A stretch of DNA of 63,021 nucleotides from Rhynchobatus australiae (lineage: Eukaryota): positions 19,713,240-19,776,260 of the forward strand of contig JAUZTB010000072.1 in NCBI GenBank assembly GCA_034780895.1. Direction: 5' to 3'. This document shows, piece by piece, positions 9,039 to 40,500 of the stretch. Numbering within the stretch: position 1 is the first letter of the stretch; each line of letters begins with the position of its first letter. Made by a program: the position numbers and the translations under genes. The notes under the pieces were generated by a model that did no database searches, was not told the DNA's origin, and saw nothing but the letters and a program-made list of their open reading frames with translations.

Positions 9039-9110
9039 GGACGTCCTTTTAGGGAACAGCAAGAATTGGCTGCTGCTGTCATTCAGCGCTGCTACAGAAA
9101 ATACAAACAG
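9039..9110 (+). CDS. CAMTA1: CAMTA1 IQ-motif exon (GRPFREQQELAAAVIQRCYRKYKQ)
   Basis: Boundaries are tgttttAG|GGA and CAG|GTaaaa. The 72-nt exon is phase 0-0 and contains IQxxxRxxK. It is too short for the ORF track. Confidence 0.95.
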
Positions 9111-11225: not shown

Positions 11226-13569
11226 AATCAACAACAATTACTTCGTTGATCTAAAATACTTCTATTTAACCCCCTCTTCCCTCCTTTCCCTTGACTTCTT
11301 CTTTGCTGTCCTTTACAAGTTTCTTCTGAAAATATTGATTCAGTTCATTTCTGATGGATGTTCAAAAGGACAATCAGGCAGATTGTATAACAGGTGGCCA
11401 ATCCGATATCAACTGTTTAATATTGTCATTGGCTCCAGTCAAAGTTAAAAGTCCCACCCTTTAATTAATTTGTTCATATGTCCTTTATTGTGAGCCTAGG
11501 TTGGATAATAAATTGGTCTGGACTCAAATGTCACCTCTGCTAATGGGCCTGTCAGTCCACATTAACTGGATGAAGCTCGCGAGGGTGAAATGAGTTGGGC
11601 AGATTCAATACTGCTCCCGTGCATTAAACTGTCTCCAGAAATTGTGACAATGATGGTGGAGAGATGTAAAATTGATCAAAAAGATCTTTTACTCCAGATC
11701 TAGATGCTTAGCTTTGGAGTACTTGACTTAGGAGTACAGAAGAAGCTTAACTATGTATACCTCATCTCTGAGGGATTAGTGATGGAAGTATTCCATTCCC
11801 AGACTGTAAAATTCCCCACTTTCATTATAAAGAGTTCTCAAAAACAGTGTCTAAAAAGAGCACTAAGTGTATCCCTCTTCCAGTAACTTCACAAATTATC
11901 CAAGCAGATGGCAAGAGAATGACAAAAGGAGCTGCCACTGAGAACTAATATGGATTAGTTCTCAATATCTTTCATCTCCTGCTGCTGTTCATCAATATCT
12001 CATGCAAAGCTCAGTCAATCTTAACAGCTGATGGCTGCTCTGCTATGTGTTCCATATCCTACTTTCACCTTGATCTCCAATATTCCCTTCTGCCACTAAT
12101 TTCCTGATCCCTCACAATTTTACTGTAATTACTTTAATTAATACTTCACAACTTCCACACACCATCCTGCAATCACATTTTGGTCTTCGTTGTCACTAGC
12201 CAGTCCTGACAATATTCCCAAGCACAGTTCTGCTGATCCAGGAACCTCCCTGTGAGAATTCCTGGTGTACATGCTAAATCTGATGGTGGCAATAGTAAAT
12301 GCTATATTCGATACTGGAACTGTTTCATAGAGAATCATTATAACTTCATAACAGATGAGACAACTATATGTGTACCACTCTCAACTAATGAAAAACCAAG
12401 AATGGAGAGGTGGGGAATCAGAGTGTTGTAGAAAAATATATTCATTTCAAAGTCTCAGCAAAATGATTAAATAAATCCCCAAGCAGACCAGGAGCTCCCA
12501 GACTCAACCTGGGGTTTTTGTCAAATTCCCTACCATTCTTTGCCATTATTTTTAATCGTTCATGGGATATGGATGTTGTTGTCAAAGCCATTATGTAGTG
12601 ACCATCTCTGATTTCCACTTGAACTTGAGTGACTTGCCAGACCATTCTAGAAGCTGGCTGAGCCAACCAATTTCCTTTGGATGCCAAGTTACAAATAGAG
12701 CTGGCCTAATAAGGACAGCAGGTTCCTTCACTACAGGACATTTTTTCCTGCCATCTTCATGTTTTTAAAAGTTTTGAAAACCAATCTTTTTACAGTCGAA
12801 TTTCTTGATTTATCTTGCAGTTCTCTTTTGGCTCAGATCAACTCTGTCTTTGTCCTGCACAACATGTCCTTATATTTTTTAATTTCGATTACCTAAAAAA
12901 AAACAGAATTGATTTTACTGCCAACTCTTTACCTGAATTGATACCATTTGGCAGAATGTCTATGGTATCATTGTTGTGGGCTGACACAGACAGAATGACC
13001 CAGATGGCAGCTAGCCATTGTGCTGGGCCTCAGTTAGGATCAGCATCTTCCCCGGGCAAAGGCAGAAGACTTTAGGTAAAGGAAACCTGTGGGGGAAATC
13101 CTAAATCTAGGAATATTAGCTGGGTACCATCACACAGAAACATTTCCCTTTATCTATTTGAGTTTATTAGAAAAGACCATTGATGCATCCAAAGCAAGTG
13201 GTCAGGATCGGCCAGGATCTAATTGAACTGTGGGGCAGGGTAGAGGGGCTTAATGAATTCTTTCTGTTCTAAAAGGGGTTAATATTGAGTTGATGAGTTG
13301 GGGGAGACTGCTTCAGAAAACTCAACGTCTAACATGTTTCTGTGCAAAATTTAAAAATTGTCCTCTGCAGATTGTTGCTTCTCCCCAGTTCCCTCCAAAA
13401 TCCTCTTACCTCTCCACCCACGCAGAGCTTTGTGACGTTCATCAGTGTTAAAGGTGCTGTTGGAGTACAAGTTTCTGTTGTGCCTCAACACTGACTGGGC
13501 AGGCTCTATTATATCTACAGAAGACTTTCTTTTCTCTGGTACTAATGTCTATTATATTCACTTTGCAAG

Positions 13570-13590
13570 CTTACATGGATAGCCTTGAAG
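13570..13590 (+). CDS. CAMTA1: 21-nt alternative microexon encoding LTWIALK between IQ motifs
   Basis: Sequence is ctttgcaAG|CTT ACA TGG ATA GCC TTG AAG|GTaatg, with a branch-like TACTAAT at 13540-13546. LTWIALK is the peptide I recall at this junction in CAMTA1/CAMTA2 isoforms. Confidence 0.9.
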
Positions 13591-14156
13591 GTAATGCAGT
13601 TCACAAATGGAATTTCAATCTTGTTCATTTTGCATTGCTGTGACATATGGCCACTAGGTGACCACCAATTGCTATTATTTTGGCATAAGCATATGTAATT
13701 TTTTTTACAGGTGCTTTTGAATCATGAGCACTGTGTGGAAATTTCAGATGATGTTCGTCTTTCATCGTCTTTGGGGATGTTGCATGTTGTCTTCATGTGC
13801 CAACTACCATGTGCCAAAAGTCATTTGTATAATCATTTAAATTAATTTAGATTAAAGTATTTTGTATAAACCACTTTTCTTTTGAGAGGGTACAGAAGAA
13901 GTTTACAGATAACAAGGTTAAGAGGCTTCAGAAATGAAGAAAGCTCCAAGAAGTTGGGCTTCAGCTTAAATCCGGGAAGAATAAAGGGAGATTTAATTCA
14001 GAAGTTTAAAATTGCAGATTGCACCCATGGACTTTACAGAACAGAAACAAGTCATGGATAGCTGCTCTGTGTTGGTGTTTGTGCTGCTGTCAAGCCTACT
14101 CCTACACTAAATAATCTCTCTCTCTCTCAATATAATAAAACTGAAGATGCTGGAAT

Positions 14157-14850
14157 TTTAATTGGTTTATTATTGTTACTTGTACTGAGGTACAGTGAAA
14201 AACTTGTTTTGCATGCCATTCATACAGATCAGTTCATCACACAGTGCATTGAAGTAGAACAAGGTAAAACAATAACAGAATGCAGAATAAAGTTTAACAG
14301 CTACAGAGAAAGTGCAATGCATGTAGACAATAAAGTGCAAGGTCATAACGAGGTAGATTGTGAGGTGAAGAGTCCATCTTATTGTACTAGGGAGCCATTC
14401 GCTAGTCATATAACAGCATTATAGAAGCTGTCCTTGAACCTGGTGGTACTTGGTTTCAGGCTTTTGCATCTTCTGCCCAATGGGAGAAGGGAGAAGAGAG
14501 AATGTCTGGGGTGGGTGGAGTCTTTAAATATGTTGGCTGCTTTACCGAGGCAGTGAGAAGTATGGACAGAGTCCATGGAGGGGAGGCTGGTTTCCTTGAT
14601 GTCCTGAGCTGTGTCCACAACTCTCTGCAGTTTCTTGCAGTCTTGGGCAGAGCAGTTGCCGTACCAAACCGTGGTGCATCCAGATGCTTTCTTTGATGCA
14701 TCATTAAAAATTGGTGAGGGTTGACAGGGACATGCCAAATTTCTTTAGCCTCCTGAGGAAGTAGAGGCACTGGTGAGCTTTCTTGGCCATGATGTCTACG
14801 TGGTTGGACCAGGAGAGGCTATTGGTGATGTTCACTTCTAGGAACTTGAG
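14157..14850 (-). mobile_element. Rex1/Babar-type LINE 3' portion
   Basis: The - strand reads CLYFLRRLKKFGMS, then GCTTVWYGNCSAQDCKKLQRVVDTAQ...KDSTHPRHSLFSLLPLGRR...TTRFKDSF. This is the typical post-RT C-terminus of this clade. A second copy lies at 43175-43585. Confidence 0.85.
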
Positions 14851-17187: not shown

Positions 17188-17381
17188 TATGCACTTTACA
17201 AAAAGATGACGCTGGCCGCCATCCTGATCCAGAGCAAGTTCCGCAGCTATTATGAGCAGAAGAAGTTCCAGCAGAGTCGTCGGGCAGCTGTCCTTATCCA
17301 GCAGTATTACCGTAGCTACAAGGAGTACGGAAAAATGAGGCAGAAGCGAAGGACAGCTGCCATGGTCCAACAGAAAATCAG
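17188..17381 (+). CDS. CAMTA1: CAMTA1 IQ-motif exon (YALYKKMTLAAILIQSKFRSYYEQKKFQQSRRAAVLIQQYYRSYK...VQQKIR)
   Basis: Boundaries are ttcctcAG|TAT and AG|GTaggg. The exon is 194 nt (phase 0 to 2) with two IQ motifs. Confidence 0.96.
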
Positions 17382-37500: not shown

Positions 37501-40500
37501 CTGCATTTCAGGAAGAAAATAGAAAGGCAAATTATCCAGCACACAGTTAATGTCCTGTGGCTTTATCTATACCCAATATGACAACAGACACAAAAGAAGC
37601 AATAAAACCAAACCAACCAGTTCCTCTAAAACACTTTACTATGGCTATCCACAGCGCACTGGGAGGAAAGAAAACCACATTTGCTGGAGTCTTAGAGCTG
37701 AACCCTTACATACGCGGAGGGAGGTAATAATCTATTACAACTTTCCATCTCAAAACTGTACTGTCATTCTGTCACTCTGCTTGNNNNNNNNNNNNNNNNN
37801 NNNNNNNNAGATACATTTCTGGTTGTATTGTTCTAAGAAATCTTGTTTTGAAATATGTATATTGTGGACTGACTAAGTCCAACAGTGAGCCTCAATTGTG
37901 CAGGCCAGCGGTTTTCAAACATCACTCTGGAGTTCCTCACTATTTCATTCCCAGGGACACCACCACAAAATATGGTCACCTTCCTGGAGATCTATATCAA
38001 AATAATGATTTATCCTTCAGGTACTCCTGTAATTATTAACAAGCTGGGGGATCCTCTGTAAGCACTGAAACATTCCTTAAATACTGATATTGGCACGTGA
38101 GGAATAGCTATTCACACATTCCTAAACCTCCTCACTAAAACTTACCCATGTAGGATTTATCCAAAAGTAGAAAGATGTTTTCAGTCATCCAACAGAACAG
38201 TGTTAATGTTCCAAAAATTATTTAATAATTTAATTAATCACAAATACAATTAGTAAATACAGAAACTGAGAGAGATCCTCTTACTACAGAGGCATGCTGT
38301 CATCACTTTGTAGATCCCTTTATGTGGGAGCTCCAGTTTGAAAACCTATGGTCTACAGAGCAGTATGCCATCTAAGTCATGCGCTTGTTAAGATAATGTT
38401 TCATATTTAAGCCTATGGAATTGCTCTGAGATAGAGAAACAGAGCCTGGTTACATGTGACATAAACTGGCAAAGGTATGTACTACAGGGAAGCTGCATGC
38501 TATTTATATTGAAGACTATCCTCCTTATAGAGGAGTGCATTCTTTTATGTGAATATTGAAGTGATGAGCAAAACAAATATCGATATATTGAACACATACA
38601 CAATCCAGCCAACTTTCAGATTTAAATTTATAAGAACTTGGCAATAAGAAAGGGCAATTCTGCTGCATTCAGCTTTCTCATTGCCTTGGTGCAGTACCTG
38701 CACTCCTCCCCAACTAATCCTATGTTATCGTAATCTAAGAACAAACACAATCAGTGCTACATGTGCACAGTAACCGGTAGCAATATGTTCCAATTCCCTC
38801 CGTTCCTGAAAGTGTTGCTCATGCTAAGGTACAGTTCCTTCATGACTTACACCATTTGAAACGTTATCCGAGTTACCAACTTCTGTGGTATTGGCATTTC
38901 CAACTGTTCTCAGCTTGAACATCAACACTCTTAGGGCTGTATCTAAGAAGCTTCATCATTGGTTCCTCATTTAAAAACAATTAAATTGCAAGCATTTATC
39001 CATGCTGCCTGCTGGTTGGGCAAGTAAACGCATTCTGCCTCTTGTATTGCTGCCCTCATAAAATCCAGCTTTGATCTTTTATTTGAGTAAGCTGCTTCCT
39101 TCCAATGCCTTACCGCCACAACCTATGGTCCCTGCACCCCAGTGACAAATGGTGAAGACTGGGCATGTCCAAACATTGGGCAAGAACAGGATTGGGATCC
39201 ATTGCAATGTCCCTGCTATAGAAGAGTCTCTTTATAGTCCTGTAATAGGAATACCCATATAGCACAGGGAACATCCATGTCTCTAGCGAAGCAGGAAAGA
39301 ACAGGAATAAGAATAAATAAGTTGGCTGAGATTATTCATTTTTATTTTATTTGGTTCTGGGAGAATTTCTACCTATTTGTGTGTGTGTGTGTGGGGAGGG
39401 GGCAGCGTGAGGGAGCTATTTTGTGAATTGATGTCTAATATCTTTCTGAATGAAATATTATCTATTTTTAAACTTAATGCATTCAAGCAAACAGTGAATA
39501 TCAGTAAGTTCTGACAGTGAGAGCTGTTAATGGAACAAATCACCATCAACATGGAATCTTTTGTTTGCCTGCTTTTAATTCACAATGGTACACTTCACTG
39601 TAATGAATGTTTGAAAACGTCATCTCTCTCCTAATTGCTAATACTCAGCCTTCACCATCCCAATTCTTACAAAAGCAACTAAAAAGGAAATTTGAAGCCT
39701 TGTTGTTGTATCTGCATCATTTTTAGCCTTTTCATCAGCACAACTAAAATTAGATTGAATTGTTATCTGCAATTAGCAGTGACGTCTTGCCTGACCAGTT
39801 CTTGAGTTGATGAATTGGGTGAAGAGCCAAACCCAACAAACCAGCAGAACCACCACACTTGGTAGGAACAGACAAGAGTAGTTGAATCAGGAAATAATGA
39901 TTATACAGAGATATAAAAGCTTATCGATAAGGGGAACAGAGAGGGAAGAGTGAGGAATGGGAAAGGTTCAGCAGCATCAAATGTTAGAGATGGGTTGATT
40001 TCAAGGCCTGGAATTTAAATAATGACGAATCACAGATTAAGCAACGATTTGTAATGAATTTCATTTGATTTTAAAGTAAAATTTGAAAAGAAAATGCTTT
40101 AAATTTGCTGTGTGTCCATCCCCCTCTAGCTCTGTAAATCTGGCATAATGCCAAGAGAAGTGGCATCAAGAGACTGAAAAGGCCACTTATGCCACTTCTC
40201 CAGGATCTCTATTGAAATTTTGCACAGAGGATCTCCTACAAGCTCTTCTCCATAGAAATTAATAGATAAAATCAAACTATTTGTGGAGAATCTTTTGATA
40301 TCCTTAGAAGTTCTGTTTGATTCTGGCAGTGAAGAGTAGAGGATTTATCATACAATTAACAGAAAATTCCTTTCAATCTCACCCAATTAGAAGAAAGCTT
40401 GTTCACAGTGTATTTGGAAACATGCTGAATCTTTCCGCTTGTATGGGGTATTTTACCTCCCGCCCTTGGATCTTATGTGCCAGCCTGTAGTCATGGCACA

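Follow-up and report, generated by a model that had tools for sequence, protein, structure and literature searches.

A 21-nt CAMTA1 microexon in Rhynchobatus australiae, its catalogued orthologues, and its predicted effect on a calmodulin-binding IQ array

The microexon and its host gene

The window analyzed here, a 63,021-nt stretch of the Rhynchobatus australiae genome, contains the 3' part of a gene that sequence similarity assigns to CAMTA1. A search with its exon at 17188-17381 returned 1803 proteins, the best 120 of which are nearly all named CAMTA1, with top matches from electric ray, horn shark, devil ray, catshark, and skate, and Narcine CAMTA1 matches two window exons at 100% identity, compared with 57-85% for CAMTA2 proteins. 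A synaptobrevin exon lies 21 kb past the end of the window on the same strand as CAMTA1, matching CAMTA1-VAMP3, which we take to be the gene order in this region. All CAMTA1 features of the window described below are on the forward strand.

An upstream 72-nt exon (9039-9110) ends in IQRCYRKYKQ, the first half of IQ repeat 2, with the donor CAG/gtaaaa, and the downstream exon (17188-17381) starts with YALYKKM and carries IQ repeats 3 to 5; both are phase 0. In the 8077-nt intron between 9110 and 17188 lies a 21-nt microexon (13570-13590, phase 0/0) that preserves the frame, contains no stop, and translates as LTWIALK. A branch-point-like TACTAAT (13540-13546), which contains ACTAAY, puts its presumptive branch A at -25 and ACTAAT at -29 from the microexon. 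A TGC at 13564-13566 (-6 to -4) directly precedes the AAG acceptor (13567-13569), the last 8 intron bases being TTTGCAAG, and the 5' splice site GTAATG (13591-13596) gives the donor AAG/GTAATG. These elements of the preliminary description could all be read directly. A TGCATG is located at 13781-13786, 191 nt downstream of the microexon.

Splice motifs alone are not unique here and would not prove an exon. The same intron contains 241 in-frame, stop-free AG..GT windows of 3-27 nt, 16 of them with a good donor, and 2 of the 241 pass a combined filter for donor, branch site, and TGC; as background, 130 of 578 intronic AG dinucleotides have a TGC no more than 18 nt upstream. The second window to pass, 14749-14772, was rejected since it corresponds to no insert among homologues. 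The exon call is settled because LTWIALK occurs, identical, at exactly the same junction in homologues, and we regard it as virtually certain that this 21-nt exon is real in ray CAMTA1. It falls within the 3-27 nt range of microexons, preserves the frame, is conserved, and has AG/GT flanks.

A second CAMTA locus in the ray genome is CAMTA2 by similarity, with an exon matching CAMTA2 at 88% and CAMTA1 at 77-78%. It has its own LTWIALK microexon (L004:7778-7798, that is, G000:C83:10510277-10510297), which differs from the CAMTA1 copy at 4 of 21 bases, all synonymous, and which is preceded by ACTAAY at -28 and, where the intron is rich in UC, by a TGC at -20. A degenerate pattern for the peptide followed by GT has 3 matches genome-wide, 2 of which lie in these CAMTA1 and CAMTA2 introns, while the third lacks L-T-W in its translation; reversing the pattern as a control gave none.

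Occurrence and age of the exon in vertebrates

Among the best 120 of the 1803 matches, LTWIALK is present at this junction in 78 and skipped in 41, and the remaining one has a different 3-residue insert in the same place. Inclusion models come from skates, sawfish, Mobula, and catsharks, with both forms present among the Mobula and catshark models. In mammals, the peptide is found in both CAMTA1 and CAMTA2, in agreement with the preliminary description, which placed it in mammalian CAMTA isoforms, and from lamprey to human it is near-invariant (109 of 116 proteins), the three variants seen being LTWTALK, LTWTSLK, and LSWIALK. Two river lamprey proteins carry LTWIALK; with copies in both paralogues as well, the exon must be older than the separation of CAMTA1 from CAMTA2 and older than the ancestor of jawed vertebrates. 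The earlier proposal of conservation since early jawed vertebrates was thus right about conservation and understated the age.

Alignment with known CAMTA1 and CAMTA2 microexons, which the preliminary description had called for, gave a close match. Zebrafish camta1a and camta1b and mouse Camta1 are tabulated with a 21/21 nt exon that encodes LTWIALK and differs from the window at base 3 only (PMC12626420), leaving 20 of 21 bases the same, and the ray CAMTA2 copy shares 17 of 21 bases and the identical peptide. Gene, junction, length, and peptide are common to the mouse, zebrafish, and ray CAMTA1 exons and only the species differs, the inclusion pattern being known from the orthologues and the ray exon from genome sequence. 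Unusual nucleotide ultraconservation was considered: counted by eye between ray and zebrafish camta1a, 1 of 6 degenerate codons differs in the exon and approximately 9 of 29 in the flanks, numbers too small to support such a claim. The ray exon might be a silent relic in its lineage, or intron DNA that reads as an exon by chance, and the annotation of Narcine, the closest among the species listed, does skip the microexon in 6 of 6 scorable isoforms, but the agreement with zebrafish and mouse, the intact splice sites, and the skate, sawfish, Mobula, and catshark inclusion models make this highly improbable.

Inclusion and its control

The LTWIALK exon is already known and is new here only as an observation in the ray genome. 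The novelty implied by the preliminary description was overstated, as the exon had been catalogued, assayed by RT-PCR, and probably perturbed in screens. In zebrafish, RT-PCR values of the microexon climb between 12 and 72 h, and there is a line in which a deletion in camta1a spans it (PMC12626420). The mouse Camta1 exon, at GRCm38 chr4:151,076,577-151,076,597, belongs to the cluster Neuronal N5 and is differential from E13.5 in mid/hindbrain and from E14.5 in forebrain, with direction +1; it is also flagged for heart and skeletal muscle, with no direction given, and its loading on PC2 (muscle) exceeds that on PC1 (PMC7821500). A frame-preserving, neuronal Camta1 microexon in a class of 3-9 amino acids was deleted or skipped by CHyMErA-seq, where it was a screen hit; its skipping altered thousands of genes in mouse cells, and a reviewer of that study states that it is not included in stem cells (PMC12868881). 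This is likely the LTWIALK exon; the read-out was transcriptomic. In a zebrafish neural-exon table, the sole camta1 entry is the 31-nt camta1b exon (PMC12626424).

The tissue regulation first proposed for the exon is therefore supported by its orthologues as to neuronal class and developmental induction, but strictly neural use is not supported, the mouse exon being flagged for heart and skeletal muscle too. Developmental neural inclusion very probably holds in R. australiae as well.

A UGC just upstream of the 3' splice site is the SRRM3/SRRM4 enhancer of neural microexons, and two SRRM_C (PF15230) loci above cut-off are present in the ray genome. The TGC is present at the microexon acceptor and absent at 5 other CAMTA1 acceptors, yet it has the intronic background given above. 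At -25, the putative ray branch site is nearer than the median of 45 nt reported for neural microexons (PMC12871342). Evidence of a response to these factors comes from the paralogous exon: the human CAMTA2 21-nt exon HsaEX0012302 goes from a PSI of 1.9 to 99.6 on SRRM4 expression (PMC7935315), and the mouse Camta2 21-nt exon MmuEX0009028 has negative changes in an nSR100 mutant table whose column heads are not shown in the available file (PMC4387716). We infer from gene and length that both are the LTWIALK exon, a peptide that the ray CAMTA2 copy shares. The 12 of 19 supplement files searched from the first study contain no CAMTA1 row in the SRRM4 table, and the 5 of 6 searched from the second contain no Camta1 row; with this, and with a TGC before so many other intronic AGs, SRRM3/4 control of the CAMTA1 copy, as originally suggested, is not directly supported. 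The layouts of the two ray copies differ, the TGC standing at -6 in CAMTA1 and at -20, in a UC-rich tract, in CAMTA2. We nevertheless think it probable that the CAMTA1 copy responds to SRRM4 as the CAMTA2 copy does.

If SRRM3/4 control were instead specific to CAMTA2, the CAMTA1 exon would be a neuro-muscular one driven mainly by RBFOX, by QKI/SF1 competition, or by release from PTBP1, all factors with recognized motifs. RBFOX would act via the downstream TGCATG, presumably an RBFOX-type motif, which is the sole copy within 300 nt of the microexon and is absent in the CAMTA2 paralogue, and QKI and SF1 would compete at the ACTAAY branch site. The positions of these motifs, at +191 and -29, fit such a scheme, as do the mouse muscle flags and PC2 loading (PMC7821500), the lack of CAMTA1 rows in the SRRM4 files searched, and the more UC-rich layout of the CAMTA2 paralogue. 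However, zebrafish camta1a has an identical acceptor end, TTTGCAAG (reverse complement read by eye), and the orthologue rows are scored Yes/Yes (camta1a) and Yes/No for UC/UGC (PMC12626420). Absence from the tables may also reflect low coverage or SRRM3 back-up, a single TGCATG is weak, and the RBFOX1-responsive Camta1 event of PMC12713644 appears, from its primers as located by eye, to be another exon in the C-terminal region. We consider control of this neuro-muscular kind possible but doubtful.

The insert within the IQ array

The CAMTA1 region contains five IQ-like repeats, spaced 23-23-23-23 when the microexon is skipped and 23-30-23-23 when it is included, and the distance from IQRCYRK to IQSKFRS, 23 residues without and 30 with the exon, is as previously given. 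The insert lies inside the IQ array and shifts its register. Since the junction falls after position 10 of IQ2, the exon replaces the second half of IQ2 as well, supplying positions 11-17 and adding W13 and I14, and with these positions rewritten, the insert is more than a spacer. Its initial portrayal as a re-spacer of two IQ motifs thus holds for the re-spacing and misses the five-repeat array and the rewritten IQ2. Over the same boundaries, canonical anchor patterns number 6 in the skip form and 16 in the inclusion form, an uncontrolled count, and one that any hydrophobic insert raises. A review that describes the CAMTA1/2 calmodulin sites as lacking experimental validation has anchor counts of its own, 5 vs 16, and the passage concerned sets a skipped CAMTA1 sequence against an included CAMTA2 sequence with splicing unmentioned.

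Of 149 representatives, a set that includes non-CAMTA IQ proteins, 81 could be scored, and 59 of these have a spacing of 23, as do named echinoderm and leech proteins; comparison of these sequences indicates that 23 is the ancestral IQ spacing. The best PDB sequence matches to the CAMTA IQ array are 8OF8 and 2IX7 of myosin V, whose lever arm has, like CAMTA1, tandem IQ motifs ~23 residues apart on a long helix; among PDB matches at E 0.1 there was no CAMTA-calmodulin structure. The similarity is weak, and myosin V is a motor whereas CAMTA1 is a transcription factor whose 30-residue step is made by splicing. The myosin Va lever arm can be aligned with the skip form on both sides of the junction (E 0.0027), and with the inclusion form from the insert onward only (E 0.03). 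Pfam IQ scores barely differ between the two forms in the 6 proteins scanned. The structure model of the inclusion form has a mean pLDDT of 51.9 and a helix through the insert, with pLDDT <50 at 170-172 and 177-179, and that of the skip form has a mean pLDDT of 68.4 and is helical across the junction; with low pLDDT and different alignments, these models are too poor to judge the isoforms. On a continuous helix, simple arithmetic makes seven residues approximately two turns, an extension of 10.5 Å and a shift of 20 degrees.

Inserts at the same junction in tunicates

Seven-residue inserts unrelated in sequence are found at the microexon junction in gene models of three tunicate genera (P0187, P0306, and P0426/P0428/P0430): RTMDSDW in Clavelina, where it is alternative (3 of 7 scorable models include it and 4 of 7 skip), HSGFPPQ in Phallusia (1 of 1), and VSILPIK in Ciona intestinalis (1 of 5). 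The three sequences are also mutually unrelated, and a genomic read-through (P0455) places an intron at the junction position in tunicate-like sequence. In Ciona and Phallusia, where the inserts begin with V-S and end with P-P-Q, respectively, a flanking exon may simply have been extended; the Clavelina insert has no initial V and no final Q or K and for that reason reads best as a cassette. Among further tunicate fragments, 7 proteins were found, none with an insert. Our literature search brought up no relevant paper on the LTWIALK exon in lamprey, shark, or tunicates, and by that search the tunicate lead is unreported. Because the tunicate 7-mers are unrelated but equal in length, length may be the conserved property. 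In amphioxus, 4 of 4 models (P0186, P0270-P0272) are three residues short at this junction, for a spacing of 20, possibly through a missed short exon or a shifted splice site.

Predicted consequences for calmodulin loading

Our preferred reading, which we hold to be probable, is that this is the ray orthologue of the catalogued CAMTA1 LTWIALK microexon, a neuronal exon likely aided by SRRM3/4 that alters calmodulin loading on the IQ array. The exon would be included mainly in maturing neurons, perhaps also in muscle, with SRRM3/4 likely helping its inclusion. Inclusion would lengthen one step of the five-repeat array from 23 to 30 residues and place a tryptophan in IQ2. With two helix turns inserted, IQ3 would move 10.5 Å further from IQ2 with only 20 degrees of rotation, so that neighboring calmodulins would lose contact while keeping to the same face; additional anchors, dependent on Ca2+, would come from the segment with the tryptophan. 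We judge this combination, calmodulins separated on one face and a tryptophan segment anchoring in Ca2+, to be slightly favored, and the polar or proline-containing tunicate inserts count against the anchor role. Altered loading would then tune the calmodulin-dependent feedback of CAMTA on transcription. In C. elegans, the calmodulin gene is repressed by its own product via the IQ motifs of CAMT-1 (PMC8428840), which makes such feedback a plausible output for the insert.

The insert may instead act chiefly through its length, as a spacer or hinge between IQ2 and IQ3 that uncouples the two, with little importance attaching to its sequence. This would account for the tunicate 7-mers, including the alternative one in Clavelina, and seven residues nearly preserve helical phase. 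However, the vertebrate peptide is near-invariant from lamprey to human, the CAMTA1 and CAMTA2 copies differ synonymously only, and the tunicate inserts are known from gene models rather than DNA, all of which makes a pure spacer unlikely. We give a similarly low weight to the insert forming a surface for another partner, or changing how stable CAMTA is or how it enters the nucleus. The region is basic and rich in W, I, and L, worm CAMT-1 IQ mutants are described without a behavioral defect (PMC8428840), and our literature search found no published calmodulin-binding test of the two CAMTA isoforms; on the other side, the insert sits within IQ2 itself and shifts the register of the array.

A joint reading of the tunicate and vertebrate inserts can be offered tentatively. 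A 21-nt alternative exon of the tunicate-vertebrate ancestor may have been selected for length, as a two-turn insert uncoupling tandem calmodulin sites, with its sequence drifting in tunicates and freezing in vertebrates, where a tryptophan-anchored version would have been fixed before the CAMTA1/CAMTA2 duplication. If this is true, then the neuronal isoform is a different calcium/calmodulin sensor, one that sets the feedback on expression of calmodulin genes. The age of the exon, and whether its length or its sequence is what counts, could be read from lamprey and tunicate sequences. The exon itself is no discovery, and its interest lies in the predicted effect of the seven residues on calmodulin binding and in the tunicate inserts; comparing the two isoforms would be a direct and cheap way to learn how the distance between IQ repeats governs the loading of calmodulin onto a transcription factor of neurons.

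Other alternative exons of CAMTA genes

A bioRxiv preprint (10.1101/2024.11.28.625692) reports a switch of CAMTA2 between brain and non-brain in which an IQ motif gives way to a 'P-loop NTP hydrolase domain'. This may be the LTWIALK microexon, as an IQ array with no interruption is similar to the lever arm of myosin and might be annotated on that basis.

Further downstream in the window, shark and ray models use two reading frames for a 69-nt C-terminal alternative exon at 37655-37723 (SALG... or RTGRKENH...); the last exon, from 49101 onward, likewise has two (RVKELRK... or SERIEKGQGT), set by a 31-nt exon upstream. This 31-nt exon, which horn shark, Mobula, and tetrapod models have as SPLVD.RLYK, could not be located in window positions 19352-49100, and it may lie inside one of 12 N runs or have been lost. 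In Drosophila, Camta has a head-enriched microexon of 28 nt (PMC8042270), close in size to the frame-shifting 31-nt exon of vertebrates.
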